From an uncultured Gammaproteobacteria bacterium (lineage in GTDB: Bacteria > Patescibacteriota > Patescibacteriia > Magasanikbacterales > UBA922), in the NCBI GenBank assembly GCA_964394405.1, contig CAYMVY010000001.1:233219-297218 (forward strand): 64,000 nt of DNA, given 5' to 3'. The translations under genes were made by a program, and so were the position numbers. Below, one piece after another: positions 1,868 through 45,043 of the stretch. Positions within the stretch are counted from its first letter, which is position 1; each line of letters starts with the position of its first letter. Below the pieces are notes generated by a model. It saw nothing but the letters and a program-made list of their open reading frames with translations. It did no database searches and was not told the origin of the DNA.

Positions 1868-3640
1868 ATGAGAAGTCATCGCATACAAGCAGGATTTACC
1901 CTGATAGAATCGCTAATAGCGCTCGGTATTTTTGCGATTTTTGTAGTGGGTATTTACGGGAGCATACAGTTGAGTTTTTCATTGGTCTATCATTCACGTG
2001 TGCGAATTATTGGAACAGCTCTTCTGAATGAACAAATCGAGATTATACGCAACGCGCCATTTGATAGTGTGGGGATAATCAATGGGAGTCCTTCAGGAAT
2101 TTTTGAATATGTGACTACGACCAATAGAAATGGGATGATATTTGAAATCACACGAACCATTAGAAATGTGGATGATCCCTATGATGGAACAATCGGGGGA
2201 ACACCGGGGGACACTGCTCCGGCAGATTACAGATTTGTAGAAATTGAAGCAAGGTGTGTCTCCTGCGATCAGACCGAACCACTTGCAATGTACACCTATG
2301 TTGCACCAAAATACCTAGAAGGAAATCTGAATCATGGCGCACTATTTATACAGGTGATAGATGCATACGGCAATCCTGTTCCTGATGCACGAGTACACGT
2401 AGTTGCAACAAGCACCAACCCGACATATGATTTTTTTGACACTACTGACAATAGTGGTTATTTGAGAGTTTATGATCTTGCTACAGGAACAACGAAGTTT
2501 GTGATAGAGGCGACAAAAGAAGGGTATACTACAGCGACGACCTATTCCCCAAGTTCTACTAACCCAAATCCAACAACTCCGCATGTTACGATTATACAAC
2601 AGGCGGTAAGCAATCTTACATTGTCAATCGATCATATATCCACACTTGCAATTGAAACAAAAAATGCGCAATGCACAGCTGTACCCTCAGTTCCGGTGAC
2701 AATCAAAGGGACACGCCTCATTGGTCTGAATCCGAGTGTGTTTCTGGTGAATGAAGGTCGTATAACGAACAGTCTGGGTACCACAGGAGAAATGCAATTA
2801 CCCTGGGATAGCTATGGAATTACGGTTACAGGATATGATTTGATTGGTACGATTCCTGATGTGCTGATGCCCATATTGCCAGGATCGTCTCAGACGAGCC
2901 AATTGATTGTAGGGACAGATACCACTCGATCTCTCGTGGTTACTGTAGTAAATCAGGGTGCACCCATCGCAAGTGCTACAGTCACGGTCACTGGACCGAA
3001 TGGGTTTTCATCAGTCAAGACAACCGGAGTCGGGAGTATTTCTCAAACGGATTGGTCATCAGGACCAAATCATGAAACTTTTGGAGCAGGACAGGGGTAT
3101 AGTGAAGCGACTGGGGTCGATCCATACACTTCACCTGGAGACCTCACACTCGCACTCAATGGAAATTCATATGTATCAAGTGGGGTACTCGAATCCTCGA
3201 CCATTGATACAGGAGAAAACGCTCGGTATGTCGTCTGGTCGTGGAATCCGATGTCTGAGACACCATCAACAACGGTGCGTTTTCAAATTGCTACTAGTCC
3301 ATCGAGTACAGGACAAATATGGAATTTTGTAGGTCCGGATGGGACTGCAAACACCTATTTCAGTACTACTAGTACCAGTATTTCCAGTGTGCATGATGAT
3401 GAGCCGTATATGAGGTATCGGGTGTATCTAAGTACTATTGATCCGTCAGTCACACCAATAGTATCTGATCTGTCATTTGTATATACCAATGCGTGCACTC
3501 CGCCAGGACAAGTGTATATGGGGGGCTTAAGTCAAGGAGAATATACTATCCAAGTCCAAGCAGAAGGATTCCAGGCATATGAGCAAACAGTTGATGTCAC
3601 TGCTGACCACTTTATCACGACCGAGCTAACTGCCCTATGA
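1868..3640 (+). CDS. large type IV prepilin-like protein (prepilin-type N-terminal cleavage/methylation domain; Thr/Ser-rich)
   Basis: N-terminus MRSHRIQAGFTLIESLIALGIFAIFVVGIYG matches the G|FTLIE prepilin leader with Glu at +5 and a hydrophobic helix. 590 aa, Thr/Ser/Gly-rich body. Confidence 0.7.
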   Translation: MRSHRIQAGFTLIESLIALGIFAIFVVGIYGSIQLSFSLVYHSRVRIIGTALLNEQIEIIRNAPFDSVGIINGSPSGIFEYVTTTNRNGMIFEITRTIRNVDDPYDGTIGGTPGDTAPADYRFVEIEARCVSCDQTEPLAMYTYVAPKYLEGNLNHGALFIQVIDAYGNPVPDARVHVVATSTNPTYDFFDTTDNSGYLRVYDLATGTTKFVIEATKEGYTTATTYSPSSTNPNPTTPHVTIIQQAVSNLTLSIDHISTLAIETKNAQCTAVPSVPVTIKGTRLIGLNPSVFLVNEGRITNSLGTTGEMQLPWDSYGITVTGYDLIGTIPDVLMPILPGSSQTSQLIVGTDTTRSLVVTVVNQGAPIASATVTVTGPNGFSSVKTTGVGSISQTDWSSGPNHETFGAGQGYSEATGVDPYTSPGDLTLALNGNSYVSSGVLESSTIDTGENARYVVWSWNPMSETPSTTVRFQIATSPSSTGQIWNFVGPDGTANTYFSTTSTSISSVHDDEPYMRYRVYLSTIDPSVTPIVSDLSFVYTNACTPPGQVYMGGLSQGEYTIQVQAEGFQAYEQTVDVTADHFITTELTAL

Positions 3641-4260
3641 AACAAAAGATTAAAAAATTCATACGGTATCGCGGCACTAGCCTGGTTGAGGTTACGGTGG
3701 TAGTGGGAATAACAGCGATTGTTACTTTGGGGGCAGCATCTTTTATCATTTTAAGTTTTCGCAATCAACGTGTAATTGATGATCAGCTGTTTGGGCAGAA
3801 AGAAGCGCGACGTATTGTTTCTGAAATTGTAAATACCGTGCGCACTGCAGAGCAATCAAGTATCGGTTCTTATCCAATTGCTGAGGCAACTACTTCTTCG
3901 CTTACGGTGTATACGAATATAGACAAAGATTCACTGAGAGAGCGTGTGCGTTATTGGCTTCTTGGGACTGAGTTAAAAAAAGGGGTTCTCAAGCCAAGCG
4001 GAAACCCGCTTTCGTACACAGGTACTGAGCAAGTAACAACGATTGCCCACAATGTTCAAAATAACGCTCAGGGTACAGCCACATTTGAATATTTTGATGA
4101 ATCATATGCTGGCTCAGGAGTAGGAATGAGCTCACCTGTCGCTATTCCTTCTATACGTATGGTGAAGATTGTAATTGAAATTGAAAGAGATGCATCTGTA
4201 AGTCCAGTACCACTAAAAGTAGAATCACTTACACAAATTAGGAATCTCAAAGAGAATTAG
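3637..4260 (+). CDS. type IV pseudopilin / minor pilin
   Basis: N-terminus RYRG|TSLVEVTVVVGITAIVTLGA is a prepilin-like leader with Glu at +5. Overlaps the upstream gene stop, so likely co-operonic. Confidence 0.65.
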   Translation: MKQKIKKFIRYRGTSLVEVTVVVGITAIVTLGAASFIILSFRNQRVIDDQLFGQKEARRIVSEIVNTVRTAEQSSIGSYPIAEATTSSLTVYTNIDKDSLRERVRYWLLGTELKKGVLKPSGNPLSYTGTEQVTTIAHNVQNNAQGTATFEYFDESYAGSGVGMSSPVAIPSIRMVKIVIEIERDASVSPVPLKVESLTQIRNLKEN

Positions 4261-4365: not shown

Positions 4366-5730
4366 ATGAGTCACACAAAGCACCATAAGCAACCATATCG
4401 CGGAACAACACTCCTTATTGTGATGATCTTTGGAACCATCGCATTTGTCATAATGGTGCTTGGGGTTTTGGGGTACGCACTATTTGAACACAAAATTTCG
4501 ATGGAAATGTATCGAAGAGATGCTGCATTTCATATCGGAGAGGCAGGGATTAATTATTATCGCTGGCACCTAGCGCATAATACAACTGATTTTACTGATG
4601 GCACTGGATTGCCTGGGCCCTATACACATACAATGAGAGATAAGTTCAATACATCTGTGGGTAGCTACTCAATTACCATTTCCTCCCCACTGCCCAATTC
4701 TTCAGTCATTGAGGTTTCTTCAACAGGAACGATAATAACCTCACCGAACGCAAAGCGCGCCCTCAAGGTACGGCTCGGTTTCCCCTCATTCACAGACAGT
4801 GCATTTCTCATGAATGTAGATATGAGCTTCAGCTCAACAACACAGGTTCATGGCGAGGTATTATCGAATGGGGGCATCAAATTCGATGGCACGACTGACT
4901 CATGGGTGAGAAGTGCTCGTACTACCTACACGTATCAGGGGCAGTCCAAACCAGGGATATGGGGGAATGGTGGTCCGCAGTATTACTGGCAATTTCCAGT
5001 ACCTGCAGCTGATTTTGGATCAGTCACTGCTGATCTTGCTGCCCTAAAAACCATTTCACAACAGAGTGGCGGCAAATATTTGAGCTCTTCAGGAAGAGAG
5101 GGGTATCAGATCATTTTTAATAATACACAATATACAGTATATCGAGTGCGAACTCGCGACTGTTATGCAGGGAGCGGGGTGGATTATTGTTATGATATTG
5201 GTAGCAAGACCCTCATTGGGACATATACACTTCCCACCAATGGGGTAATGTTTATCGAAGACAATGCATGGCTCGAAGGAACTGTGGATGGTAGGGTTAC
5301 GATTGGGGTCGGAACATTTCCTGTACAAGGAACATATAAACAAGTGTATATTTCCAATAATCTGCTACAAAAACAAAAATCAAGTGATGATGTGATTGGA
5401 ATTATAGCGCAGGGCAGTATTATTATTCCCTATGAAGCCCCCAGTACTATGGAGGTAAATGCAGCAGCACTCTCACAATATGCACAAATCTATACACCAT
5501 ACTATAGTCCAAGTCAAAATCCAGGAGCGCTGAAAAATTCTCTTACCTTCTTTGGTTCTCAGATTTCGTATACAGGAGGCGGATGGAAATATATCAATGG
5601 ACAGGGGCAAGTAACTTCTGGATATTTATACACCAATCATGTATATGATGGAAATCTGAAGTACTACCCACCTCCAGGATTTCCGACAGGCTCTACGTAT
5701 GAATTGATTAGCTGGGAAGAGGTGCAATAA
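4366..5730 (+). CDS. pilus-associated protein with prepilin-like N-terminal helix (PilX-like, no Glu5)
   Basis: N-terminus PYRGTTLLIVMIFGTIAFVIMVLGVLGYA is a hydrophobic helix after RG. 454 aa. Third gene of the pilin-like trio. Confidence 0.4.
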   Translation: MSHTKHHKQPYRGTTLLIVMIFGTIAFVIMVLGVLGYALFEHKISMEMYRRDAAFHIGEAGINYYRWHLAHNTTDFTDGTGLPGPYTHTMRDKFNTSVGSYSITISSPLPNSSVIEVSSTGTIITSPNAKRALKVRLGFPSFTDSAFLMNVDMSFSSTTQVHGEVLSNGGIKFDGTTDSWVRSARTTYTYQGQSKPGIWGNGGPQYYWQFPVPAADFGSVTADLAALKTISQQSGGKYLSSSGREGYQIIFNNTQYTVYRVRTRDCYAGSGVDYCYDIGSKTLIGTYTLPTNGVMFIEDNAWLEGTVDGRVTIGVGTFPVQGTYKQVYISNNLLQKQKSSDDVIGIIAQGSIIIPYEAPSTMEVNAAALSQYAQIYTPYYSPSQNPGALKNSLTFFGSQISYTGGGWKYINGQGQVTSGYLYTNHVYDGNLKYYPPPGFPTGSTYELISWEEVQ

Positions 5731-6692: not shown

Positions 6693-7664
6693 TTGCTGAT
6701 AACTATGGAACAAACCTTAAAAGAAATAAGTAAATTAATGGTAGCTTTGTCCACTCTTTTTTTTCTTTTTTTTTCACACACATATACGGTTGTTGCAGCA
6801 ACTCCCAAATATCTCTACTGTGACTGTAGAGTGGAGGTGGGCTTTGCTCTTGAAGAGAATCAGGAAGCGACATTGGATGATAATCTTTTCATCAGGTACG
6901 CCCCGCTCATTGATAATGGTGTAACCAATGACACAATTTTTACTTTTCCAGGTGAGTACTCAAATTCAATTAGTGGGAGAGGGTTTATAAATGGAGATAA
7001 GTTCGGGTATTCTTACGCCAAGAATGTGTTTGAAAAAATTAAAGCAGGTGGGGCGATATTATATGATGAAGCTGGGAATTATTTTAAAAATCAACAGTCA
7101 ACTAACAATAATTTCAATCTCTATCCATTCAAACTTAATCCTCAATTTAAACAGGCAGCATTCGTTATAGAAAATGAGACAGAGGCAATGATTGATTTTA
7201 ATACTCAAGATAAAAATGCTTGTAGCGTAGATATTCCTTCGATAGAAGGGTATCCGAGTGGTATTTATAGTAGAGTCAAAGGCGATACATATATTGGATT
7301 TAAAATGGAGTGTGCCGATCGATATGAGTATGATATAAATGAAGTACCAGACCCGCATGAAAAGGAAAATACTGGTCAATCTCCCAGTAGCACCTCACTT
7401 AAAAAATTCGCAGACCAGCTCAACAAACTAGAGGCAAAAACTCTCCCTGCTTTGATCGGGGTTATCATAAAAGGATTGATGGGTATCATTGGGACTGTGG
7501 CACTAGTCATGATGCTCTACGGAGGAATTCTATGGATGACTGCCCGAGGAAATTCTGAGACTACTACCAAGGCGCGCGATACGATTCTGTGGGCAGGACT
7601 CGGGATCGTCGTGATCTTTGCGAGCTATGCGCTGGTAGACTTTATATTTGAGATATTTAGGTAA
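6693..7664 (+). CDS. secreted protein with C-terminal TrbC/VirB2-like pilin module (array member P0)
   Basis: N-terminal hydrophobic signal. C-terminus LYGGILWMTARGNSETTTKARDTILWAGLGIVVIFASYAL matches the array consensus. Confidence 0.55.
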   Translation: MLITMEQTLKEISKLMVALSTLFFLFFSHTYTVVAATPKYLYCDCRVEVGFALEENQEATLDDNLFIRYAPLIDNGVTNDTIFTFPGEYSNSISGRGFINGDKFGYSYAKNVFEKIKAGGAILYDEAGNYFKNQQSTNNNFNLYPFKLNPQFKQAAFVIENETEAMIDFNTQDKNACSVDIPSIEGYPSGIYSRVKGDTYIGFKMECADRYEYDINEVPDPHEKENTGQSPSSTSLKKFADQLNKLEAKTLPALIGVIIKGLMGIIGTVALVMMLYGGILWMTARGNSETTTKARDTILWAGLGIVVIFASYALVDFIFEIFR

Positions 7665-9119: not shown

Positions 9120-10295
9120 ATGAAAAAAAGGAATACATTTCTTTTGTCCACGCTATACCTAGGTAGCGTCCTTTTGGGAGTGGTGGTCTTTGGGGTGCAA
9201 AGTATTCACGCGAATCATCTGGTAGTTAATCTGGGGGGCTTCAGATGTCCGATTGCACCAAAACAAGAGGAAGACATGGCAATCTTTAAAATAATCATGC
9301 CCGGAGGTAGATTATTTCCTGCCGAGGCAAGCGAAGATGAGCATTTTGATGGAACAAAAGATCAGCCCAAGGACAGCGAAGGGAAATTTTTCTGTGTACC
9401 TGTCCCCAAAGGAACCAAAGAAATTAATTGGATGCAATTACTTCAAGGGAGGGACGCACAGGGGAAACGAGTGATGGTAGACGATTGGAGTGATGAAGAC
9501 GTAAGAGGGCAAAACAGGGACAAGTGTGCTTCTCCCAACAACTGGGATAGCTTTGAATCAGATCATCGACCTGATACAGCATTCTATAAACTCGAAGAAA
9601 GTAGAAATGTTCGCTGTGACGGCGGAGAATACTACGCCCGTATACGATATTATTTCAATGATTTGGATACAGCAAAAGATGAGTTTTTTATCTATTTCAT
9701 GAAGATAGCTGATCCGGGTGATGTGCCACTGAATAATCAGGGATGTCTCAATAAACATGGTGAGAATAAAGAAGCATGTTCTGCTGATGCAGAATGTTTT
9801 TGGTGGCCAGCCATACCTCGGTGTATGGCAAAAGCAGATCGTACCAATCAGTGCTCGAAATTGGATGTGGAGACATGCAAATTAGCGCAACATTGCAAGG
9901 TGAAGAATAATGCATGCACTGATGTACAAATCGATATGGGAGCTGCGGTAGATGAATATATTGCAGCACGGTATCAGAAGCCAGACGGCTACACTGGACC
10001 ACTACCCGATTGCGCGTTTACCGGGTCATGTCGCAGTATAGAGGATTTACTCGAGCTCGGTGTCAAGGTTGCTGATTGGCTTTTTTCAATCATTGCAGGA
10101 CTGGCATTTGTATTTTTTGTCTACGGCGGATTGACTATGGTATTGTCACTTGGGAATGCAGAGAAAGTGGGACAAGGAAAACAAATTTTAGTTGCAGCGA
10201 CACTCGGACTCATTATCACATTCTCAGCATATATACTCGTAGGATTTGTAGTCAAGGCAATTGGGATTAATGCTGGACTCACACCATTTAATTGA
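9120..10295 (+). CDS. Cys-rich secreted protein with C-terminal pilin-like module (P1)
   Basis: Signal peptide, more than 16 Cys in the ectodomain. C-terminus VYGGLTMVLSLGNAEKVGQGKQILVAATLGLIITFSAYIL. Confidence 0.55.
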   Translation: MKKRNTFLLSTLYLGSVLLGVVVFGVQSIHANHLVVNLGGFRCPIAPKQEEDMAIFKIIMPGGRLFPAEASEDEHFDGTKDQPKDSEGKFFCVPVPKGTKEINWMQLLQGRDAQGKRVMVDDWSDEDVRGQNRDKCASPNNWDSFESDHRPDTAFYKLEESRNVRCDGGEYYARIRYYFNDLDTAKDEFFIYFMKIADPGDVPLNNQGCLNKHGENKEACSADAECFWWPAIPRCMAKADRTNQCSKLDVETCKLAQHCKVKNNACTDVQIDMGAAVDEYIAARYQKPDGYTGPLPDCAFTGSCRSIEDLLELGVKVADWLFSIIAGLAFVFFVYGGLTMVLSLGNAEKVGQGKQILVAATLGLIITFSAYILVGFVVKAIGINAGLTPFN

Positions 10296-10304
10296 TAAAA
10301 AAAT

Positions 10305-10937
10305 ATGCGTAGATTGGTAAAATATATACCCCTATTAGTAGCGATTGTCTTTAGTTTTTTTGCAGGACCGAACGTTTTTGCTCAGACTGGATTTAGTTGT
10401 CAGAGTGATCAGGAATGTTATGAGGCAGGATATACGTGCGATGCGACAACACACACTTGTACCCAGACATTATCACAACCGGCATTGGACCAAACCGCAA
10501 ATACAGTATGTTATGTAAAATCGTCAAAAACATGCTCACAATCCGAAGCTACTTGCAATGAGCCGAATCAGAAATTTCCTGACATGCCTCAATGTGAAGT
10601 CTATAAACAGGCACAAGACACATACGAGGCTACGGCAAATGGGACTACCAACTGTCGTAATGGCGAAGACTGTGTAAGTCTCGTGAACCCGCTCTCGACC
10701 ACTGATATTCGGAAAATAGTCGGGAGTACCATTCAGGTGCTTATTGGAATTATTGGGTCAATTACCTTTGTAATTTTCCTCTATGGAGGGGTGCTCTGGC
10801 TCACCTCAGCGGGGAATTCTGAAAAAATACAAAAAGGTTTACAGGCAATGCTCTGGGCTGGGATAGGAATTATTGTGGTTTTTAGTAGCTATGCTATACT
10901 TACGTTGATTTTGGACGCATTGCAGGCGAGTCCTTGA
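10305..10937 (+). CDS. Cys-rich pilin-like protein (P2)
   Basis: Signal MRRLVKYIPLLVAIVFSFFAGPNVFAQ, Cys-rich middle. C-terminus LYGGVLWLTSAGNSEKIQKGLQAMLWAGIGIIVVFSSYAIL. Confidence 0.6.
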   Translation: MRRLVKYIPLLVAIVFSFFAGPNVFAQTGFSCQSDQECYEAGYTCDATTHTCTQTLSQPALDQTANTVCYVKSSKTCSQSEATCNEPNQKFPDMPQCEVYKQAQDTYEATANGTTNCRNGEDCVSLVNPLSTTDIRKIVGSTIQVLIGIIGSITFVIFLYGGVLWLTSAGNSEKIQKGLQAMLWAGIGIIVVFSSYAILTLILDALQASP

Positions 10938-10997
10938 GTAACTAATTAATGAATGTTATGAAAAAAACATATCAAAAATTGAAGGGAGGTGAGGAGT

Positions 10998-11417
10998 GTG
11001 AGTAACATCAAAGCAAAATTATTAAAGCATCGAAATATCCTTTTGGGAATCGCGGCTTTAGTGAGCGTTTTTGCGTTATCTCCCGCACATGTAGCGTTTA
11101 CCCAAGCAGACGTTGATTTCGGTACTGATGTGGTAAAAGAGAATATTAATATCAGTACTACAGATGACGATGCTCGAGTAGTAGTCGTACGACTTATTAA
11201 TCTCGCGCTAACGTTTCTTGGATTAATCGCTGTAGTATTGATCCTCTGGGGAGGCTTCAAATGGATGACAGCTGGAGGAAATGACGAAAATGTAGAAGCA
11301 GCAAAAAAGATTATCATTGCAGCAGTAATCGGTCTTGCGATCATTATTTCTGCATACGCAATCGCAAACTTCTTTATCAATTCAATCCAGACTGCAGTTG
11401 GAGACGAGCCTATCTAG
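10998..11417 (+). CDS. TrbC/VirB2-like pilin paralog (P3)
   Basis: GTG start 6-8 nt after AGGGAGGTGA Shine-Dalgarno. Signal, then RVVVVRLINLALTFLGLIAVVLILWGGFKWMTAGGNDENVEAAKKIIIAAVIGLAIIISAYAIANFF. Confidence 0.65.
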   Translation: MSNIKAKLLKHRNILLGIAALVSVFALSPAHVAFTQADVDFGTDVVKENINISTTDDDARVVVVRLINLALTFLGLIAVVLILWGGFKWMTAGGNDENVEAAKKIIIAAVIGLAIIISAYAIANFFINSIQTAVGDEPI

Positions 11418-11510
11418 TTGCACGTTCCTTTGGCACCATTATTTGGATGGTGTCAGAGTTTTCTCGGCATTATATATGTGTCGAGAAAGCTTTGACCTCT
11501 TAGATTCTAT

Positions 11511-11924
11511 ATGAGTATAAAAAAAGTTTTTGCTACATTATTTACCGTAATACTCTTTGTGTTGTTAGTCGGTTTCCAGTCTGCCTATGGACAGGGCTGT
11601 TCTGATGAGTCTGATATTCTGGGGCTCGACTGCGCTGATGCATCGGGTCTGAGTAGCGAGGATCCACGGGTACTCACGATCAGGATCGTGAATTTTGCCC
11701 TGAGCCTTCTTGGTATTATCGCAGTATTGATCATACTCTATGCAGGATTCACCTGGATGACAGCTGGGGGGAATGATGAGAAAATAGGCACTGCAAAAAA
11801 GACCTTGTTCGCAGCAGTCGCAGGACTGATTATTATTCTGACAGCATATTCAATCATGAGTTTTGTACTTCGATCACTGTGTACCGCGACTGGGTCATGT
11901 GGGACACAGTACGGTATTCTTTAA
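11511..11924 (+). CDS. pilin paralog (P4)
   Basis: Signal, then LYAGFTWMTAGGNDEKIGTAKKTLFAAVAGLIIILTAYSIMSF. Confidence 0.65.
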   Translation: MSIKKVFATLFTVILFVLLVGFQSAYGQGCSDESDILGLDCADASGLSSEDPRVLTIRIVNFALSLLGIIAVLIILYAGFTWMTAGGNDEKIGTAKKTLFAAVAGLIIILTAYSIMSFVLRSLCTATGSCGTQYGIL

Positions 11925-11938
11925 TTAATCCGGGTATT

Positions 11939-12697
11939 ATGAAAAAGTTTCTGTTCATTGTGGGGATTGCAATCGCATTTTCTATCTTTGCACTTGGCAC
12001 CGCAACATTTGCGCAAAATTTTGGTCTTGATGAGACAGCAGGGTCAGCAGGTCTCAAAGGATATGGGAACAGTGTGCCGACCATTGCAGGAAATATTATT
12101 GGAACCCTGCTTTCGATGATCTCGGTTCTCTTTTTTGTATTGGTTCTATATGGGGGAATTGTCTGGATGACGGCTCGGGGCAATTCTGAACTTACCACCA
12201 AAGCTATGGATACGATTATTGCAGCCGTAATTGGTATTATCATTATCATGGGAGCATACGCGCTTACCAACTTTGTATTCAAACTCGGTGGGACAAATAC
12301 AGGGGGAGGCAATGGTGGCGGAGGAAATACCGACAGTCCAACTCTCACCTGGTGCTTAACACCTGAAAATAACTGTATCCAAGGTGGGGGAAGTGCTTGT
12401 CCGGGAACATTGTATGCAACCGAAGCCATTTGTAATGCTGCAAAAGGAAGTTCGGCAGTATGTACAGCACGTGGGGAAACAATTTGTGGCAATTTTTTGA
12501 CCAGTGCCGAGTGTACGCAGTACAATGATAGCGCTCCATTTATGGGAGGAAACTATGGATGTCGATGGAATACTATCGGACCAAATGCACCTAATTGTGT
12601 TGTGTCACAGCAACAGATAGATCAATGTAAGGCTTTGTCTCCAGTACAATGTCAAAATGCAGGTTATGAAATGAGATGTCAATTAGGGGCAGAATGA
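11939..12697 (+). CDS. pilin paralog with extra C-terminal Gly/Cys-rich domain (P5)
   Basis: Start at MKKFLFIV. Pilin module LYGGIVWMTARGNSELTTKAMDTIIAAVIGIIIIMGAYAL is followed by GGGNGGGGN and a roughly 120-aa segment with 16 Cys. Confidence 0.6.
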   Translation: MKKFLFIVGIAIAFSIFALGTATFAQNFGLDETAGSAGLKGYGNSVPTIAGNIIGTLLSMISVLFFVLVLYGGIVWMTARGNSELTTKAMDTIIAAVIGIIIIMGAYALTNFVFKLGGTNTGGGNGGGGNTDSPTLTWCLTPENNCIQGGGSACPGTLYATEAICNAAKGSSAVCTARGETICGNFLTSAECTQYNDSAPFMGGNYGCRWNTIGPNAPNCVVSQQQIDQCKALSPVQCQNAGYEMRCQLGAE

Positions 12698-12736
12698 TAC
12701 AAAGTTTAAAATAATGAATAATAAAGTAAGGCACAC

Positions 12737-13129
12737 ATGCGCACTAAATCAAAAAATAAACTTATTTTTTTGCACGTCACCCTTGTTTCAATAGGATTGT
12801 TCGTAAACAAAGCAACAGTTCATGCAAAAAAAACTATTGATGATGCAGGGTCTGCTCTTGATTCAGTAGTAAATCCAACAGGACTACCCAAAGGTGAAGT
12901 GGCAACCTACGTCGGAAGCGTAGCACAGTGGATATTTGGCGCATTAGGACTCACATTTTTTGTACTAGCGACCTATGCCGGGATCACCTGGTTCATCGCT
13001 CGTGGAGAGGAAGAAAAAATTACCAAAGCAAAACAAACCCTGATAGCTGCAGTCATCGGTCTCATCATTGCAATAAGCGCGTATGCGATTTCAGTGTTTA
13101 TTACCAATACCTCAGGTTTTGGGGGATAA
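12737..13129 (+). CDS. pilin paralog (P6)
   Basis: Signal, then YAGITWFIARGEEEKITKAKQTLIAAVIGLIIAISAYAISVF. Confidence 0.65.
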   Translation: MRTKSKNKLIFLHVTLVSIGLFVNKATVHAKKTIDDAGSALDSVVNPTGLPKGEVATYVGSVAQWIFGALGLTFFVLATYAGITWFIARGEEEKITKAKQTLIAAVIGLIIAISAYAISVFITNTSGFGG

Positions 13130-13145
13130 TAACGAGCAAATACAT

Positions 13146-13535
13146 ATGAAAATTGTACAGGGAATAAAAAAACAACTACTGTGTGCATATCTTTTGGTGA
13201 TTAGTCTCAGTCTATTGCCGGGAGCAGTGCTTGGTCAGGGGAATTTGGGGGATGCAGGGGATAATCTAGCAAATGTACAGAAAGGTATTGGTGGAAATGT
13301 TCCAACAGATGTATCAGTAGTGGTTGGAAATATTATCAAAACCGTACTGAGTCTCGTGGGAATCATATTCCTCATTCTTACGGTCTATGCGGGCTATCTC
13401 TGGATGACTGCGCGAGGAGAAGATGAGCAGGTGAGCAAGGCAAAAGAAATTATCAAGTCATCGATCGCAGGCTTATTTGTGGTGGTAAGTTCATACGCGA
13501 TTACCGTGTTTATCACTTCTCGTTTTAGTAACTAA
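13146..13535 (+). CDS. pilin paralog (P7)
   Basis: Start at MKIVQGIKK, signal, then VYAGYLWMTARGEDEQVSKAKEIIKSSIAGLFVVVSSYAITVF. Confidence 0.65.
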   Translation: MKIVQGIKKQLLCAYLLVISLSLLPGAVLGQGNLGDAGDNLANVQKGIGGNVPTDVSVVVGNIIKTVLSLVGIIFLILTVYAGYLWMTARGEDEQVSKAKEIIKSSIAGLFVVVSSYAITVFITSRFSN

Positions 13536-13541: not shown

Positions 13542-13955
13542 ATGAATTCTGGATCACTCATGAGAAAAGTAGGGGTAATGCTCGGGGTAGCCACACTGGG
13601 GTTGCTTGTAACCACTGCACACGCCCAAAATCTTGGAATCGATGCAGTACACAAAGCAGGCACAGAAGCCGGATTTGAGCGCGCGACAGAAACCAGTTTT
13701 TCAGAAAATGTAGGCCGAGCGATTACGATTCTTTTCTCAATATTGGGTGTACTCTTCACTATTCTCATTGTCTATGCAGGCTATCTCTGGATGACTGCGC
13801 GAGGAAATGATGAGTTTGTGACTAAGGCAAAAAACATACTCTCTACGTCAATTATTGGTCTCATCATCTTACTCATGGCCTATAGCATTACCCGCTTTGT
13901 AGTGCCTCGACTGCTTCAGGGTTCGGTGAATGTCCCTGTTGAAGAACAGCAATAG
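13542..13955 (+). CDS. pilin paralog (P8)
   Basis: VYAGYLWMTARGNDEFVTKAKNILSTSIIGLIILLMAYSITRF. Confidence 0.65.
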   Translation: MNSGSLMRKVGVMLGVATLGLLVTTAHAQNLGIDAVHKAGTEAGFERATETSFSENVGRAITILFSILGVLFTILIVYAGYLWMTARGNDEFVTKAKNILSTSIIGLIILLMAYSITRFVVPRLLQGSVNVPVEEQQ

Positions 13956-13958
13956 TTA

Positions 13959-14384
13959 ATGACCTATATGAACAAGTTACGCATCTTTCTTGTCGCCATA
14001 TTCGCCACCTGCGCTGTTGTGACGGGCGTTTGTCTACTATATGCACGTAGTGTAGAGGCTGCCACCACTTCGGTGCCAGATGTTCTCGGACAACTCAATG
14101 CAGGATCAAAGGCGGCAGGATTTGGGACCGAAGCTGTCGACCCTCGAATTGCTGTTGCGAATGGTGTTAAGCTTTTTCTTTCATTACTTGGGATTATTTT
14201 TGTTTGTCTGGTGGTGTATGCAGGATTTCTCATATTCACTGCTGCGGGGAATGATGAACGGGTGACACAGGCAAAAGGAATCATCATAACTTCAGTCATA
14301 GGACTGGTAATTATTTTCTCTGCATATAGTATCACGAGCTTTGTTACACGCCGGATTCTGGCAGAAACAGTAGGGAGTTATTAA
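13959..14384 (+). CDS. pilin paralog (P9)
   Basis: DPRIAVANGVKLFLSLLGIIFVCLVVYAGFLIFTAAGNDERVTQAKGIIITSVIGLVIIFSAYSITSF. Confidence 0.65.
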   Translation: MTYMNKLRIFLVAIFATCAVVTGVCLLYARSVEAATTSVPDVLGQLNAGSKAAGFGTEAVDPRIAVANGVKLFLSLLGIIFVCLVVYAGFLIFTAAGNDERVTQAKGIIITSVIGLVIIFSAYSITSFVTRRILAETVGSY

Positions 14385-14391: not shown

Positions 14392-14892
14392 ATGCTACAA
14401 AAAATACAATTGATACTTGTTCTCTGCTTTTCTTTACTCCTTCCAATCGTAGTACATACGCAGACTATTCCACCAGGACAATACCAGGGGTCGGACATGG
14501 AAAAACAATTAAGTGCTTTTGGTGGTAAGAGCGGGGCGCAATTGGGAGAACCTACAGATCCTCGAATTATTGTCGCGCGATTGATTAAAACTGTCCTGGG
14601 AGTGATTGGAATTATCGCCGTGGTTCTCGCCCTTTATGCAGGGTTCCTCATGATGACCTCGAGTGGGAATGAAGAAAAAATAGCCGAAGGGAAGAAAATA
14701 CTCATGTATTGCGCTGTTGGAGTTGCAATCATTTTGGGGGCATATAGCATTACCTACTTCATCTATTATGGCATCTATAGCAGCTGGCAAAATCCTATGG
14801 AAATAGGAAATCAGGATACTATATATATGCAACCGAATGACTACGACCTGTATAATCCTGATCCACTAGAGCAGAACACCACGATCCAGTGA
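14392..14892 (+). CDS. pilin paralog (P10)
   Basis: DPRIIVARLIKTVLGVIGIIAVVLALYAGFLMMTSSGNEEKIAEGKKILMYCAVGVAIILGAYSITYF. Confidence 0.65.
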   Translation: MLQKIQLILVLCFSLLLPIVVHTQTIPPGQYQGSDMEKQLSAFGGKSGAQLGEPTDPRIIVARLIKTVLGVIGIIAVVLALYAGFLMMTSSGNEEKIAEGKKILMYCAVGVAIILGAYSITYFIYYGIYSSWQNPMEIGNQDTIYMQPNDYDLYNPDPLEQNTTIQ

Positions 14893-14902: not shown

Positions 14903-16018
14903 TTATTGAGAAGAAATAAAATTCAAAATTTCAGTACTAGACTGCGCAAAGGCGCGGTCTTTTTTATGGTAATTACCTGAGAGATAGAATTCGAGCAAGG
15001 GGAGAATTTCTGCCGCTGTTTTGGCATGAGATCCGAGATGGTTTTTTTCTAAAAATTCAATATTATATTCCTCCTGTCCGGGTATAGGATTAATGGCAAT
15101 CATAGGAACACGAGACACCATACATTCAGTGGTGGTGAGACCTCCTGGTTTACTGATGACGACTGTAGCAATCCGCATAAGATCAGAGATTTCATCAGTC
15201 CACCCAAGGGGTGTATATGCGATATGTGGAGGGGGTTTAAGTGCCTTTAGACGTTGATATAGTTTTTTATTGTGACCAGATACTGCAAAAATTGCGAGTG
15301 GTTTTTTGAATGAAGAAAAAAGTTCGGTGACTATTTCTGAAATTTCTATCATACCAGATCCTCCTGAAAGAATGAGGACGCGAGGTATATGTGGAGCGAG
15401 CTTATACCGCGATTCAATACTCGCTACATCCTTTTTTTCAAAGAATTGCGGGTCGATAGGTATACCAAAGGTGTGGACCATGGTTGGTTTAATACCAAAA
15501 TGATTCACGAGTTCATGCTTCATGTCTTTCGTACTTACAATATATGAATCGATTCCTTTAACCAGTAAGACCGGGTGGACTCCATAATCAGTGAGTATTT
15601 CAGTAATTGGGATATGTTTTTTTCGTTTCTTCATGGAGTGCAGGAGAATTTCAGAAGGAAGAAAATGTGTGGAAATGATGTGATCAGGCTCAAATGAATA
15701 TACCTTATTGAGAAATTCAAATGAATTAAGCATTTTGAGATAATCTGTCAATGATCGATAAGCTTTGATAAACGTCTGGTTATCGCTCAAATAGAAGAGG
15801 GATGCCCAAACTTTGGGCAAATGTTCTACGAGAAATCCATAGCCACTCACGGTAGCCTTTTTGAGCAGGGGGGTAATATAATCAGCAATATCAATATGGA
15901 GACATTCCAAGTTGGGAAAATCAAGTCGAGCAGCTTGGGTAAGAGCTCTTGCTGCCTGGACATGTCCTGATCCTGTAGCTAGTGAGACAATTAAAATTTT
16001 CTTTGTTTTTTGGGCCAT
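14903..16018 (-). CDS. glycosyltransferase family 28, MGDG-synthase/UgtP-like diacylglycerol glycosyltransferase
   Basis: N-terminus ILIVSLATGSGHVQAARAL and C-terminal ISKPGGLTTTECMVSRVPMIAINPIPGQEEYNIEFL match the UgtP/MGDG synthase family. Confidence 0.75.
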   Translation of the reverse strand: MAQKTKKILIVSLATGSGHVQAARALTQAARLDFPNLECLHIDIADYITPLLKKATVSGYGFLVEHLPKVWASLFYLSDNQTFIKAYRSLTDYLKMLNSFEFLNKVYSFEPDHIISTHFLPSEILLHSMKKRKKHIPITEILTDYGVHPVLLVKGIDSYIVSTKDMKHELVNHFGIKPTMVHTFGIPIDPQFFEKKDVASIESRYKLAPHIPRVLILSGGSGMIEISEIVTELFSSFKKPLAIFAVSGHNKKLYQRLKALKPPPHIAYTPLGWTDEISDLMRIATVVISKPGGLTTTECMVSRVPMIAINPIPGQEEYNIEFLEKNHLGSHAKTAAEILPLLEFYLSGNYHKKDRAFAQSSTEILNFISSQ

Positions 16019-17993: not shown

Positions 17994-18992
17994 TCAATCA
18001 TCTTTTCGTTTCTTTCCATGAAATTTTTTGTGTATATTAAGCAATTCCTTATCAGTGATGTGTGTATAGATTTGGGTTGTCGTGATTGAAGCGTGCCCGA
18101 GCATAGATTGGACGCTGCGGATATCGGCGCCATTTTGAAGTAAATCAGTGGCATAGGAGTGTCGGAGGGTGTGCGGAGTGACAGCTTTGGTGATCCCAGC
18201 TTCACGCGCATGTTTTTGTACAATACGCTGGACCGAGCGCGTTGTCAGCGGTTCATCATGACCATCTTTTGACTTATTTTTCACAATTTCGTGTTTTTTG
18301 GTCCGTTTATCGTGAGAAACAAAAAGATAGGGATGAATATCATTTCTGAGATCTAGATATTTCTTGAGCCAGTATTTTGCCTGCTCTGATATAAAAACAA
18401 CCCGAGTCTTCCGTCCCTTACCAGTAACCCTAAACTCGTCTCGTTTGAGGTTTACATCATCTTTCTTGAGTTTTACCAGCTCAGATACGCGAAGACCAGT
18501 AGAAAAGAGTAATTCGAGAATAGATTTGTCTCGATAGGCGATCAAGAGGGTCGGTCCAGCTGAAATTTGTTCTGCTTCAAGCTTCTTTACATTGATATTC
18601 TTGAGAGGTGCCTCGAGAATTCGATTCAAATCACTCCCATCAAGAAATGATACCTCGCGATCAGGCATCTTCATGAGCTCTATTTTTTCTGCTGGGAGCG
18701 TTTGTACATCTCTTTTGGCTAGATATTTCAGGAATGTTCGGAGTGCAATCAGGTGGTAATTCTGTGTATTCTTTTTGAGTGGCTCGCCGTGCACATCAAT
18801 GAGACGATTGAGCCATAGTCGGAACTGCCGGATATCTTCGTAGGTTATATCAGCAGGTTTTTTGTTCTCTCCAAACCACTCTACAAAACGTTTGAGATAA
18901 AAATCGTAGTTTTTGGTAGTTTTATCACTCCGATTCTTTTCAATTTCGAGGTGTTCGAGAAAATCAGTTTTGTATTGTGACAAAGTTTGCAT
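17994..18992 (-). CDS. tyrosine site-specific recombinase, XerC/XerD family
   Basis: C-terminal HTLRHSYATDLLQNGADIRSVQSMLGHASITTTQIYTHI catalytic region. N-terminal SAM-like core-binding domain. 332 aa. Confidence 0.8.
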   Translation of the reverse strand: MQTLSQYKTDFLEHLEIEKNRSDKTTKNYDFYLKRFVEWFGENKKPADITYEDIRQFRLWLNRLIDVHGEPLKKNTQNYHLIALRTFLKYLAKRDVQTLPAEKIELMKMPDREVSFLDGSDLNRILEAPLKNINVKKLEAEQISAGPTLLIAYRDKSILELLFSTGLRVSELVKLKKDDVNLKRDEFRVTGKGRKTRVVFISEQAKYWLKKYLDLRNDIHPYLFVSHDKRTKKHEIVKNKSKDGHDEPLTTRSVQRIVQKHAREAGITKAVTPHTLRHSYATDLLQNGADIRSVQSMLGHASITTTQIYTHITDKELLNIHKKFHGKKRKDD

Positions 18993-20794: not shown

Positions 20795-21703
20795 TCACAT
20801 GTCCATGAATGCTTTTGCTAATTTTTCGTACAGTATTGCAAAAATTGGATCGTCACTGATGGGGGATAAACCAACCTCAGAATTCATTTCAATAATTTTA
20901 GGACCATCTGTGGTATAGCCAAAATCAATACTATAAAAACGATGTCCACATTCAGAGAACTCTAAATCAATATTACGCGCAATGGTGAATAATTCTTGCG
21001 GTAAGCGTTTGAGGTCAACCATGTGTAAAGTACCTCCTTGGGCAACATTGGCGAGTAAGCTCCCTTTCGGAGGAGTCCTCACGTACGAAAACAACACTTC
21101 TCCATCAAAAATTGCCAATCGCAGATCATGTATCCCATCGACAATATCTTGAATACCACCCGAAGTATCCAAAAATTCTGAAACCACACCGGGGAATAAG
21201 AGTGAGGTGGAAGATTGGGTGAAATATTGTTTTTCTTTTATTTTTACACCAATACCTTCGGCACCTAAATAAGGCTTGAATACTGTATAAGGAGTAGTAA
21301 TCTGGTCTAATATTGCGTGCAATTCATCGATGGTAGTGACAAAGAATGTCTTGGGGCAATATTCAGAAAATTTTTGATAAGTAAGCCATTTGTTGTCACA
21401 AGTTTCTTTTATTTTTCGGCAATTAAGTACAGGAATATCGTCATTTGTCTCAAGTCTACCTTTATTAAAGATGACATCAGCGACTATCGGCCCTGTTTCT
21501 ATAAGACCTGTTTCAGTAATGATCCATGATTGGGAAAAATGTCCGTTTCCTAAGTAACTTTTTTGATCCCTGGTAACATATAGTTGTCCGCCCTGTTTGT
21601 TGAGGGCCTGGGATAGTTCCAAATAGCAGGTTAAATATTCGGGTGTAAAAACAGGGGTGCCTTGTTCATGTTTCGTGTCAGTAAATACGGCAATTTTTTT
21701 CAT
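20795..21703 (-). CDS. ATP-grasp ligase (RimK/YheC-like), paralog A
   Basis: ATP-grasp C-terminal signature RFYSIDFGYTTDGPKIIEMNSEVGL. Tandem paralog of 21805-22719. Confidence 0.6.
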   Translation of the reverse strand: MKKIAVFTDTKHEQGTPVFTPEYLTCYLELSQALNKQGGQLYVTRDQKSYLGNGHFSQSWIITETGLIETGPIVADVIFNKGRLETNDDIPVLNCRKIKETCDNKWLTYQKFSEYCPKTFFVTTIDELHAILDQITTPYTVFKPYLGAEGIGVKIKEKQYFTQSSTSLLFPGVVSEFLDTSGGIQDIVDGIHDLRLAIFDGEVLFSYVRTPPKGSLLANVAQGGTLHMVDLKRLPQELFTIARNIDLEFSECGHRFYSIDFGYTTDGPKIIEMNSEVGLSPISDDPIFAILYEKLAKAFMDM

Positions 21704-21804: not shown

Positions 21805-22719
21805 CTATAATTCCATAAATACATGTGCCAATTTTTCTTTTAACGTTTTAAAAATAGGATGATCCTTGTTGGGTAGTAAGCCAAGCATACCATTTGTTTC
21901 AATAATTTTAGGACCATCTGTGGTATAGCCAAAATCAATACTATAAAAACGATGTCCACAATCACGAAAATCAGCATCAACAGAATTCACAATATCGATT
22001 AATTCGCGAGGTAGTTTAGAGAGTTCAACCATTCTAAAGGTGCCACCTTTTGCTACATTGGCGAGCAGACTCCCTTTCGGAGGAGTTCTCACATACGAAT
22101 AGAGCACTTCTCCATCAAACACCGCCAGTCTCAGATCATGTATTCCTTCGACAATACCAGGAATTCCGACAGACATATCTAGAAATTCTGAAACCACAGC
22201 GGGGAATCGAAGGTCAACGGAGTCTTGAGTGAAGTATTTTTTTTCTTCTATCTTGACCCCATCGCCACCGCCATCCAAATAGGGCTTAAAAACAGCTCGA
22301 TCTGTTGAAATTTTTGGGAGTATGGCATGTAATTGAACTGTATTTTCAACATAAAAAGTTTGGGGGCAATATTTAGAAAGACGTTCATACATGACCCATT
22401 TATTGTCAAAATGGTGAGTGATTGTTTCATTGTTAAAAATGGGTATGGTCCTATCAGTGGTAAATATTCCCTTATCGTAGAGCACGGCAACAGTGACTGG
22501 CCCAGTCTCTACCAGTTTATCATTTTCAATAACCCATGATTTCGAAAACGAGCCATTGCCTAGATACGTTTCTTGACCACGCACAATATACAATTGTCCA
22601 CCCAGACGGGATACCTCGGCCGTTAATTCGCTATATGCAGTCCAATAATCAGGTGTTGCAAGCGGTGGGTCCATGGCCCCAGGCAATTTAAAAAATACCG
22701 CAATTTTTTTCATACTCAT
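21805..22719 (-). CDS. ATP-grasp ligase, paralog B
   Basis: Same architecture, RFYSIDFGYTTDGPKIIETNGMLGL. Shares a 64-nt identical tract with paralog A. Confidence 0.6.
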   Translation of the reverse strand: MSMKKIAVFFKLPGAMDPPLATPDYWTAYSELTAEVSRLGGQLYIVRGQETYLGNGSFSKSWVIENDKLVETGPVTVAVLYDKGIFTTDRTIPIFNNETITHHFDNKWVMYERLSKYCPQTFYVENTVQLHAILPKISTDRAVFKPYLDGGGDGVKIEEKKYFTQDSVDLRFPAVVSEFLDMSVGIPGIVEGIHDLRLAVFDGEVLYSYVRTPPKGSLLANVAKGGTFRMVELSKLPRELIDIVNSVDADFRDCGHRFYSIDFGYTTDGPKIIETNGMLGLLPNKDHPIFKTLKEKLAHVFMEL

Positions 22720-22831: not shown

Positions 22832-23500
22832 ATGAATACTGTAGTATTTGATATCGAAACCATTCCAGTACATTTTGATGAACTAGACAGTGAACAGAAA
22901 AATTATTTGCTAAAATTCGCCGAAAATGGGGAAGATGAAGAAAAAATAAAGCAACAAATGGCGCTGTGGGCCCCGACGAATAGGATTGTCGCAATTGGTA
23001 TGCTCTCAGTCGAGAGCGGGAAAGGAGCAGTCTATTTCCAAGCACCAAGACAGAGTGTTGACCCTTATGAAAAAGACGGGATCAAATATGAGTCTGGCAC
23101 AGAAAAAGAAATTCTCGAAAAATTTTGGAAAGCTATTTCTTTTTCTCATAAATTCGTGACATTTAATGGTCGAGGTTTTGATTGTCCGGTGCTTATGCTC
23201 AGATCAGCAATGCTTGGAGTAAAGCCAACCAAAAATTTGGCACCCTACCGCTATAGTACGGATGCACACGTAGATCTGCTTGAGCAATTGACCTTCTATA
23301 ATGCCTATCGAAAATTTAATCTCGATTTTTATTGCAAAGCATTTGGGATTGAGTCACCTAAAGCAAATGGGGTGACTGGCCATGATGTGTTACCTATGTT
23401 TGAGTCGGGGAAATATACAGAAATCGCAGAGTATTGCGCCGGGGATCTGCATGCAACAAAGGAATTGTATATACGGTGGAAAGATAACTTATCGTTCTAG
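22832..23500 (+). CDS. RNase H-like 3'-5' exonuclease (PolB-exonuclease-like, YprB-type)
   Basis: FDIETIP Exo I motif (D-x-E) near the N-terminus, FNGRGFDCPVL Exo II-like, YCAGDLHAT Exo III-like. Confidence 0.55.
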   Translation: MNTVVFDIETIPVHFDELDSEQKNYLLKFAENGEDEEKIKQQMALWAPTNRIVAIGMLSVESGKGAVYFQAPRQSVDPYEKDGIKYESGTEKEILEKFWKAISFSHKFVTFNGRGFDCPVLMLRSAMLGVKPTKNLAPYRYSTDAHVDLLEQLTFYNAYRKFNLDFYCKAFGIESPKANGVTGHDVLPMFESGKYTEIAEYCAGDLHATKELYIRWKDNLSF

Positions 23501-23624
23501 AACTCAAAACTAAAAACTCAAAAGTTAAAACAATAACTTAAATCTCAAAATTTATTTTGTGTCTGAGAGATTTTAGTTCTTTAGTTACAGCTTTGAGTTT
23601 TGAATTTTACGTTTTGAGTTTACC
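23501..23624. repeat. intergenic AAAACTCAAA-type imperfect palindromic repeat element (copy A)
   Basis: Left arm of AACTCAAAAC/AAAAACTCAAAAG units, right arm of CTTTGAGTTTT/CGTTTTGAGTTT units. Confidence 0.6.
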
Positions 23625-27527: not shown

Positions 27528-27845
27528 TTATTTCAGTTTTTTTATGTGTTCGAGGCGATTCGGGTCATGCTTGTGGAGTCCAGTCAGAATTTCAATAAAT
27601 TCAATCAGTGAATTGAGTCCAAAAGCGGCAAAGGCAATAACAAAGATGAGGTTCTGTATATAGAGAGCGTACGTGAGGAGGCATGCAGATCCAAGGACAA
27701 AGACTAGGTCCTGCCTCCGTTCAGCTTCAAGAAATACTCCATAGGAGAGAAGAATGATGCCGAGTCCTGCTACGACGTAAATAACTATCTGTAGTGTGGA
27801 TGAAGGTAGTGTGGGGAACCAAGACTCGAGAAGCATAGGTTTCAA
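27528..27845 (-). CDS. small integral membrane protein (3 TM)
   Basis: 105-aa hydrophobic ORF in the operon gap. Confidence 0.35.
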   Translation of the reverse strand: MKPMLLESWFPTLPSSTLQIVIYVVAGLGIILLSYGVFLEAERRQDLVFVLGSACLLTYALYIQNLIFVIAFAAFGLNSLIEFIEILTGLHKHDPNRLEHIKKLK

Positions 27846-27966
27846 ATTTAAAACTCAAAAGTAAAAACTCAAAATTTTTAAATACAATTTTAAGTATAGC
27901 ATACGATATACGACACATGGAATACGATACAAAATTTTGAGTCGTATTATGTCTATCGTGAGTCGT
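27846..27966. repeat. repeat element copy B
   Basis: AAAACTCAAAAGTAAAAACTCAAAA ... AAAATTTTGAGTCGT. Confidence 0.5.
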
Positions 27967-30073: not shown

Positions 30074-30112
30074 AATTCAAAGCTTAAAACTCAAAACCAT
30101 TTGAGTTGAATT
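30064..30112. repeat. repeat element copy C (short)
   Basis: AAAAGTCAAAATTCAAAGCTTAAAACTCAAAACC-ATTTGAGTTGAA. Confidence 0.45.
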
Positions 30113-44984: not shown

Positions 44985-45004
44985 AGTAAATTAATGTCTT
45001 ACAC

Positions 45005-45036
45005 AAAAACATCCCGACTCAATCGGGATGTTTTTG
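45005..45036 (+). terminator. intrinsic terminator ACATCCCGA-ctcaa-TCGGGATGT + T-run after ftsH
   Basis: Perfect 9-bp stem. Same family as 1254-1285. Confidence 0.6.
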
Positions 45037-45043
45037 TGTATCT

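Follow-up and report, generated by a model that had tools for sequence, protein, structure and literature searches.

The 64-kb window analysed here (64,000 nucleotides of contig CAYMVY010000001.1, assembly GCA_964394405.1) carries a tandem array of 11 genes, P0 to P10, for VirB2-like pilins, some of which have a cysteine-rich segment fused to the pilin module, ahead of it in P1 and P2 and behind it in P5. The nearest relatives at the species level are annotated Candidatus Magasanikbacteria, which makes this a Patescibacteria (CPR) chromosome, and the window represents about 11% of a genome of ~597 kb, such that the negative statements made below about genome content apply to the window. We consider it probable that this is an array of VirB2-like anchors which displays exchangeable disulfide-type surface modules and which has been diversified by ordinary recombination. 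The case is built upon the architecture of the proteins, on signals that place both of their termini on the same side of the membrane, on even cysteine counts, on modules that have moved between proteins, and on a P5 tail that is swapped between strains.

Cysteine-rich modules on a common pilin anchor

All 11 genes lie on the + strand between positions 6693 and 14892, as found by open reading frame (ORF) and Pfam scans (Table 1). Every product exceeds the gathering score of 26.6 bits for PF18895 (T4SS_pilin, the VirB2-like pilins of Patescibacteria and monoderms; T4SS, type IV secretion system), with scores of 28.0-39.1 bits, and the pilin modules are 25-52% identical to one another. The coordinates given for P1, P2, P4 and P5 in the original prediction, which drew attention to these genes, were confirmed, although the array extends beyond the region that it covered (9120-12697). 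It had placed a cysteine-rich region ahead of the pilin module in P1 and P2, cysteine pairs at both ends of P4, and a glycine run followed by a cysteine-rich domain behind the pilin module of P5. This order of parts is borne out in each case, but the counts were too high: P1 contains 14 cysteines rather than more than 16, P2 contains 10 rather than about 15, and P5 contains 12 rather than 16. Those of P1 are found at residue 43, in the distal domain (three), within residues 209-266 (eight) and at positions 298/304. The ten of P2 are confined to residues 32-123, and the twelve of P5 span residues 139-247, every one of them downstream of the pilin module. The P4 pairs are C30/C41 and C124/C130. 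Cysteine accounts for 9.8-10.1% of residues in the relevant segments (P1 205-305, P2 27-125 and P5 131-252), against a background of 0.71% in 28 housekeeping proteins encoded in the same window (binomial P for enrichment 1e-10 to 3e-9), and every mature ectodomain of the array has an even number of cysteines.

The internal organisation of these segments is best described protein by protein. The eight cysteines of the membrane-proximal 'CxW' stalk in P1 follow the pattern C-x9-10-C-x5-C-x-W-x5-7-C-..-C-x2-L-x4-C-x5-C-x6-C, followed first by a helix and then by a loop of invariant sequence C-A-F-T-G-S-C. The P2 ectodomain comprises a C-x5-C-x6-C-x6-C knot, a second four-cysteine unit and a CRNGEDC loop. 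In P5 the glycine run (GGGNGGGGN) occupies residues 122-130 within the linker, and the tail then begins with a four-cysteine module that we call WCL (WCLTPENNC...C...C). One copy of this module is present in P5, and between one and three copies are found in the tails of the P5 family. Beyond it the tail is an orphan: an exhaustive phmmer search of 1.84 billion representative proteins with the P5 tail matched the WCL module only and found no homologue from about residue 190 onwards (the last ~60 residues), while a word-indexed homologue search with the tail alone found nothing.

It had been suggested that the cysteine spacing be compared with known folds such as the EGF-like and knottin types, and that the segments represent a single type of cargo. 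Neither idea fared well within the window. The P1, P2 and P5 segments match none of the EGF, knottin and granulin models, the sole sign being a Granulin trace in P2 (13.7 bits, where the cut-off is 20.9). Moreover, none of the three segments matches a Pfam family at E<=10 or any family in NCBIfam, DUF4215/TIGR02232 included. Nor are the cysteine-rich parts of P1, P2 and P5 detectably homologous to each other. Comparison of the P1 stalk, the P2 ectodomain, the WCL module and the orphan P5 tail gave one weak, uncorrected BLAST match (E 0.006), iterated profile scores of 4-9 bits against up to 14 for shuffled sequences, and hhalign probabilities below 1%; we therefore rejected a common origin of the four segments as unproven. 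The AlphaFold model of P1 has a mean pLDDT of 84.6, and a Foldseek search of the PDB with this model returned nothing with E<0.1, leaving the ectodomain with no PDB neighbour. The P5 model is unreliable across the tail, where the pLDDT is below 50.

The unusual architecture of P5 raised the concern that a sequencing frameshift might have fused two separate genes into one. Beyond that architecture there is nothing to favour such an artefact, and we regard it as practically discounted. Homologue searches with P5 returned 97 proteins; in 76 of these the hairpin is followed by a tail of 40 residues or more. The glycosyltransferase that flanks the array (59% and 57% identity) led to two loci from related species, L006 (Ca. 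Magasanikbacteria) and L007. In each of them the complete array is retained with its gene order unchanged, and at the P5 position they encode proteins of 208 residues with 8 cysteines and 308 residues with 19 cysteines, respectively, each of them a pilin followed by a cysteine-rich tail. Together with an identical P5 ORF in an independent assembly, these homologues and syntenic orthologues refute the frameshift idea. The exact 252-residue P5 protein has no database record, and nor does the exact P2 protein; the public gene call for P5 is a 266-residue protein (P0006) that uses an upstream ATG overlapping P4 (window 11879-11938). This annotated start is probably too far upstream, because the orthologues start at an MKK... 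signal peptide, equivalent to position 11939.

Tails of this kind are common among relatives. The cysteine count is even in 74 of the 76 P5-family tails, their mean cysteine content is 9.5%, and glycine-type linkers between anchor and tail are general in the family. An independent survey used 24 related loci, obtained from a metagenome scan for near-identical P5 anchors and employed for architecture only, since the scan found nothing closer than 67% for P5 anchors of this species. Among its 130 pilin-module ORFs, 74 are plain, 24 have cysteine-rich C-terminal tails, 20 have long cysteine-rich N-terminal heads, and 4 of these have cysteine-rich domains on both ends; extra domains are found on ~40% of array members. 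An even number of cysteines was found in 27 of the 31 C-terminal tails in this survey. Further architectures occur in P0027, in P0146 and P0147, and in L022 (1276-2079), L032 (210-998), L035 (588-1571) and L036 (601-1380); these relatives include one protein with two tandem pilin modules and several anchors that are cysteine-rich on both ends.

Exchange of modules between proteins, species and strains

The proposal that cysteine-rich modules have been shuffled onto a common anchor is supported, and it holds between ends of the protein, between paralogues, between species and between strains. The WCL module is C-terminal in P5 but N-terminal to a P2-type anchor in P0145-P0147. These matches to the P5 tail have E values of 1e-4 to 3e-4 in a search of 1.84e9 proteins, with up to 55% identity over 40 residues, and the sequence 'WCLTPENNC' is identical in P0146. 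Likewise, a profile of the P1 stalk, built with the window sequence excluded, scores 12.9-29.3 bits against C-terminal tails of the P5 family, compared with 12.2 bits for the best of 3800 composition-matched shuffles. Across the P5 family as a whole, the 76 tails fall into 45 clusters with no BLAST link between them, and yet they are borne on anchors that are 40-83% identical.

Comparison of orthologous loci in related genomes was recommended as a check for domain swapping, and in L006 and L007 it shows anchors that are kept and ectodomains that are replaced. The P0 anchor is 78% identical to that of L006 and 75% identical to that of L007, but the ectodomains in those loci are different and cysteine-rich. 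The L006 P0 ectodomain aligns instead with P2 of the window (30% identity over 255 columns, E 3e-37) and is unrelated to the beta-rich domain at the same position in the window P0. The P2 orthologues are 162, 210 and 414 residues long, and their common part is limited to the anchor and a CRNGEDC...NPL motif. Searches with P1 found 42 homologues, 16 of them full length; in ~25, including that of L007, the distal domain is swapped for other domains, and the stalk and anchor are common to them. Not everything at these loci is in flux: both cysteine pairs of P4 are kept in L006 and L007, and identical P4 proteins were found in 4 other samples. The picture that emerges is one in which anchors and membrane-proximal motifs evolve slowly and distal modules come and go, become duplicated and are exchanged.

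The same process can be seen at much shorter range. In two contigs, L001 and L002, a block at ~12400-12830 cannot be aligned to the window at all, yet the sequence on either side of it matches with 98.3-98.8% identity. The left edge of this block lies inside the WCL module, where identity declines from 100% to 77%, then to 60% and then to none, and at the right edge identity returns in P6 just past the signal peptide. In L001 and L002 the P5 protein has 215 residues, with a canonical DUF4215/TIGR02232 repeat at its C-terminal end (PF13948 30.2 bits, cut-off 27; TIGR02232 48.6 bits, cut-off 20.8). The exchange thus involves whole unrelated modules of differing length, spans a gene boundary and has graded edges, which points to recombination with a diverged donor. 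Two short metagenome contigs from the same species, L003 and L004, end inside P5 at positions equivalent to 12288 and 12106, before the variable block is reached; these breaks are consistent with fragmentation of the assemblies caused by allele heterogeneity. Elsewhere in L001 (170-280), the spacer between P2 and P3 contains 111 bp of inserted DNA that includes an inverted repeat (TCGAGCCGAGGGATAGCTCGA); this insertion is absent from the window at 10937-10940 and may be a small mobile element.

It was further suggested that diversification occurs by a cassette-like mechanism. This stands insofar as alleles are replaced between strains, but we found no dedicated cassette machinery in the window. 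A programmed system, whether based on silent cassettes of the pilE/pilS kind, a diversity-generating retroelement or site-specific inversion, would account for a block replaced between strains that are ~98.5% identical and for the extreme diversity of tails on a conserved anchor, and there is a tyrosine recombinase gene (17994-18992) 3 kb downstream of the array. In L001, however, this gene and its neighbours are conserved together, and its product resembles a housekeeping recombinase of the Xer type. No second, partial or inverted-repeat copy of any ectodomain or tail DNA is present in the 64 kb, nor are there promoterless partial copies of the variable part of the pilE/pilS type. Repeat searches and Pfam scans of the window ORFs likewise revealed no template/variable repeat pair, no invertase sites and no reverse transcriptase. 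What distinguishes the alleles is entire modules of unrelated sequence and a difference in length, not adenine-specific substitutions, and the swapped block takes in the P6 signal peptide as well. We rejected a retroelement on the grounds that reverse transcriptase and template repeat are both missing from the window and the alleles are unrelated modules of unequal length, and a shufflon on the grounds that the 64 kb contain no inverted-repeat switch. Overall, we consider programmed diversification to be unlikely, and with dedicated cassette machinery absent from the window, exchange by ordinary recombination is the likeliest mechanism.

Topology and the nature of the display

The occurrence of cysteine-rich domains on either side of the two-helix anchor had been taken to imply opposite membrane topologies, or display at the tip versus the base, for P5 relative to P1 and P2. 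Our analysis does not support this view. Each paralogue has a Sec-type signal peptide at its N-terminus followed by two hydrophobic helices, as judged by hydropathy and sequence, and the hairpins are modelled confidently by AlphaFold (H307-342/H347-381 in P1 and H46-78/H83-117 in P5). Lysine and arginine residues total 29 in the 15-residue loops between the helices, compared with 10 and 8 in the outer flanks. A basic loop that obeys the positive-inside rule, taken together with the signal peptide and a two-span hairpin, places the P1 and P2 heads and the P5 tail all on the extracytoplasmic side, which is also where disulfide-type domains need to be. The same geometry is found in the F pilus, where both pilin termini are outside (PMC5018250). 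The only argument for separating N- from C-terminal domains, whether across the membrane or to the two ends of a filament, is their position in the primary sequence. A two-span hairpin brings the chain back to the side on which it started, the signal peptides and loops rich in lysine and arginine set that side as the outside, even-numbered disulfide-type cysteine domains would be unstable in the cytoplasm, and several relatives have cysteine-rich domains on both ends of one anchor. We therefore hold opposite topologies to be highly improbable.

In the arrangement that we favour, a Sec signal peptide would export each product and the conserved two-helix hairpin would hold it, with the short basic loop on the cytoplasmic side (in a filament, should one be formed, towards the lumen) and both ends of the chain outside. 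P1 and P2 would display small disulfide-bonded modules at their N-termini, P5 would do so at its C-terminus behind the glycine-rich linker, and P4 would present one cysteine loop on each side of its hairpin. Exchange may proceed by homologous or illegitimate recombination in which conserved DNA coding for anchors and modules provides the homology arms. The modules probably serve an episymbiont as variable heads for adhesion or for the recognition of hosts or other surfaces, carried either on a T4SS-type pilus or in the membrane, and their exchange would alter what the cell presents to the outside. A bolder version of this idea is a 'display rack', that is a pilus or membrane scaffold with interchangeable disulfide-rich heads on both free termini, in which exchange between strains sets host range and the WCL module, the CxW stalk and the orphan P5 tail constitute new cysteine-rich families. 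We offer this version tentatively, and think it rather less likely to be right as a whole than to be wrong in some part.

Several points weigh against the anchor array as we interpret it. Just two alleles of the P5 tail have been recovered from this species, and the search for donor copies or a retroelement spans 64 of ~597 kb, so a donor may lie at a distance. The fold of the P5 tail is not predictable from its low-confidence model (pLDDT <50), and the modelled P1 ectodomain has no match in the PDB. The pilus, the disulfide bonds, the binding partner and the function are all things that we infer. Only the name of the family connects the array with a T4SS, with no match to VirB4, VirB6 or VirD4 in Pfam scans of ORFs across the 64 kb, and a Dsb gene was not found in the window either. 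Finally, a 280-residue ectodomain on each subunit may be a poor fit to the tightly packed filaments of VirB2-type pilins.

The last of these considerations leads to the most serious alternative, according to which the hairpin merely anchors surface adhesins or receptors, the long proteins P0, P1, P2 and P5 never polymerise, and the short paralogues alone, if any, form a filament. The absence of T4SS machinery from the window, the size of the ectodomains (up to 280 residues in P1 and 337 residues in the L007 P2) and the lack of a solved PF18895 filament are all in keeping with this. With regard to the latter, searching PDB sequences with a profile of the pilin module gave only spurious matches to designed 'Pizza' repeat proteins and no solved pilin. 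Against it, the long and short forms have the same conserved hairpin and loop motif, the geometry of the F pilus leaves both termini free on the outside (PMC5018250), and pilin arrays adjoin virB4 in 1135 of 1948 assemblies (PMC12102498). We judge a purely anchoring role for the long proteins to be possible, though less likely than the display of modules by an array of pilin-type anchors that includes them.

Another alternative concerns the fate of the P5 C-terminus, which might be cut at the glycine-rich linker to release the tail as a soluble cysteine-rich peptide and leave a short mature pilin. A flexible Gly/Asn linker does separate the anchor of P5 from its tail, similar linkers are general in the P5 family, and the loss of C-terminal residues from RP4 TrbC during maturation provides a model. 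On the other hand, there is no protease or cyclase gene nearby, and WCL and stalk modules that serve as N-terminal heads join their anchors in the absence of such linkers, which favours display over release. We therefore consider processing of this kind improbable.

Relationship to known systems and genomic surroundings

Arrays of this general type have already been described. VirB2-like arrays of between 2 and 11 genes are present in 383 Patescibacteria assemblies, at times with one other gene inside, and their members have low mutual identity (mean 25%, maximum 54%); they have been interpreted in terms of host-range or antigenic variation (PMC12102498, Quinonero-Coronel et al. 2025). The window array resembles them in its PF18895 membership, its tandem arrangement, its 11 genes (the top of the published range), the single non-pilin gene inside it, the 25-52% identity between paralogues and its location on the chromosome of a small (~0.6 Mb) genome. 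It differs in that the accounts searched present the published arrays as sets of small divergent pilins, and in that virB4 is not next to it within the window. Proximity to virB4 is not an absolute requirement, because virB4 is near the pilin genes in just 1135 of the 1948 assemblies (PMC12102498). Fused cysteine-rich domains, their placement at either terminus and the exchange of modules were not found in the published descriptions of pilin arrays that we searched. Measured against these descriptions, the new part is the modular cysteine-rich cargo on either terminus and its exchange, and not the array type.

At the level of the superfamily, the hairpins are related to F-pilus TraA and T-pilus VirB2 (PF04956; PMC5018250), with which they share a signal peptide, a two-helix hairpin, a basic loop and both termini outside. 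The best PF04956 (TrbC/VirB2) score is 25.8 bits for P4 and the others are 14-20 bits, all below the gathering score of 27.9, which supports a relationship at superfamily level only. Classical mature pilins, in contrast, have 60-80 residues and no extra domains, and the PDB profile search found no solved pilin. The Mycoplasma ICE Mbov_0395 family pilin-like protein (NF045849) is similar in that the P0, P2, P4 and P5 hairpins span nearly the whole of its 80-residue model (E 3e-8 to 2e-4). The scores of 20.7-33.2 bits fall under the cut-off of 40, however, and NF045849 proteins are short and come from conjugative elements. The Myxococcus-type cysteine-rich acidic repeat (DUF4215/TIGR02232) is a further point of contact: the L001/L002 P5 tail is a member and several P5-family tails have one or two copies, whereas the P1, P2 and P5 segments of the window match neither model. 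Neisseria type IV pilins (the disulfide-bonded region of pilE/pilS), polymorphic toxin CT domains and phage receptor-binding tips follow the same logic, in which a part for assembly that evolves slowly is coupled to a distal part that is exchanged rapidly, with recombination breakpoints at a conserved junction. The likeness is one of analogy only, since those families are unrelated and the window lacks silent cassettes, immunity genes and a phage context. Divergent VirB2 genes are present in several copies per locus in Bartonella and Anaplasma, and have been read as surface variation or host-range adaptation (as summarised in PMC12102498). Going by that summary, the variation there is in the pilin body, whereas here it is in disulfide-rich modules appended to either terminus.

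Host recognition by ultrasmall episymbiotic bacteria is still poorly understood. VirB2-like pilins are essential in one genetically tractable relative, Ca. Southlakia epibionticum, where the pilin cluster is needed for epibiotic growth (Wang et al. 2023, PMC10633639); an extracellular filament of Patescibacteria pilins is not shown in that work or in a review (PMC12857230). If our interpretation is correct, then many 'pilins' would be anchors for exchangeable disulfide-stabilised heads, which would make those heads concrete candidates for host recognition and possibly the determinants of host range in a lineage of Patescibacteria. The candidate heads are short domains that could be expressed alone, and allele swaps between near-identical strains offer natural test material. 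More generally, 'T4SS pilin' annotations in metagenomes should be treated with caution, as they cover heterogeneous architectures.

Table 1. Positions of the pilin array genes, their parts and the strain-variable block in the window.
Feature	Position	Strand	Basis
P0, pilin paralogue with 210-aa beta-rich, Cys-poor (4 Cys) N-terminal ectodomain	6693..7664	+	PF18895 36 bits; database start 6705
Solute-binding protein gene splitting the array between P0 and P1	7735..9111	+	SBP_bac_8, SBP_bac_1
P1, signal peptide, distal beta-rich domain, 8-Cys stalk, helix and CAFTGSC motif, pilin hairpin	9120..10295	+	PF18895 35.7 bits
P1 distal ectodomain (predominantly beta strands), aa ~40-200	9237..9719	+	P1 model; homologue comparison
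P1 membrane-proximal 8-Cys 'CxW' stalk domain, aa 205-268	9732..9923	+	Cys columns conserved in 42-sequence alignment
P1 two-helix pilin hairpin, aa 307-381	10038..10262	+	Helices 307-342 and 347-381 modelled; PF18895 aa 316-377
P2, signal peptide, 10-Cys ectodomain, pilin hairpin	10305..10937	+	PF18895 36.4 bits
P2 10-Cys ectodomain, aa 27-125	10383..10679	+	Sequence
P3, plain pilin paralogue without Cys	10989..11417	+	PF18895 39.1 bits
P4, pilin whose hairpin is flanked by a Cys pair on each side	11511..11924	+	PF18895 37.7 bits
P5, signal peptide, pilin hairpin, Gly-rich linker, C-terminal 12-Cys domain	11939..12697	+	PF18895 28.0 bits
P5 Gly/Asn/Thr-rich linker, aa 117-131	12287..12331	+	Sequence; pLDDT <50
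P5 'WCL' 4-Cys module, aa 138-165, WCLTPENNCIQGGGSACPGTLYATEAIC	12350..12433	+	Homologue searches
P5 orphan 8-Cys tail, aa 166-252	12434..12694	+	Homologue searches
Strain-variable block: 3' part of P5, intergenic spacer, signal-peptide part of P6	12400..12830 (approx.)	+	L001/L002 alignment
P6, plain pilin paralogue	12737..13129	+	PF18895 37 bits
P7, plain pilin paralogue	13146..13535	+	PF18895 36.4 bits
P8, plain pilin paralogue	13542..13955	+	PF18895 37.7 bits
P9, plain pilin paralogue	13959..14384	+	PF18895 36.7 bits
P10, pilin with 40-aa Cys-free C-terminal extension	14392..14892	+	PF18895 33.3 bits

The solute-binding protein gene that interrupts the array keeps its position in related species, and the arrays of L006 and L007 have a gap at the same point. 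At the other end, the P10 orthologues of L005 and L007 have a cysteine pair in the C-terminal extension, and the array is closed by a convergent gene for an MGDG-synthase-like glycosyltransferase (14903-16018). The remaining genes of the window are of a housekeeping nature and include those for tRNA synthetases, GyrA, FtsH, RuvA, SSB, S1 and a type IV pilus ATPase. Two parts of a type IV pilus are encoded: a 590-residue protein (1868-3640) with an N-terminal methylation motif and CarboxypepD_reg and PEGA domains, and a PilB-like T2SSE ATPase (46225-47964). The interval from the former to the pilin array contains two ORFs (3637-4260 and 4366-5730) that are unannotated.

A number of repeats were noted elsewhere in the window. 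Tandem ATP-grasp paralogues (GSH-S_ATP/RimK-like) are encoded on the - strand at 20795-21703 and 21805-22719, with DNA that is 73-80% identical over ~400 nt. Dispersed intergenic repeats made up of units resembling AAAACTCAAAA and TTTTGAGTT are found at 23486-23620, 27830-27966, 30052-30101, 45040-45148 and 57118-57261. They are imperfect palindromes with arms of 50-60 nt that are 76-86% complementary between sites, and the family could be REP/MITE-like or regulatory. Lastly, there are two pairs of G+C-rich hairpins followed by a T-run, at 1247-1282 and 45002-45037 (92% identity) and at 52308-52351 and 53069-53112 (86%), which look like terminators that have been copied to distant intergenic sites.

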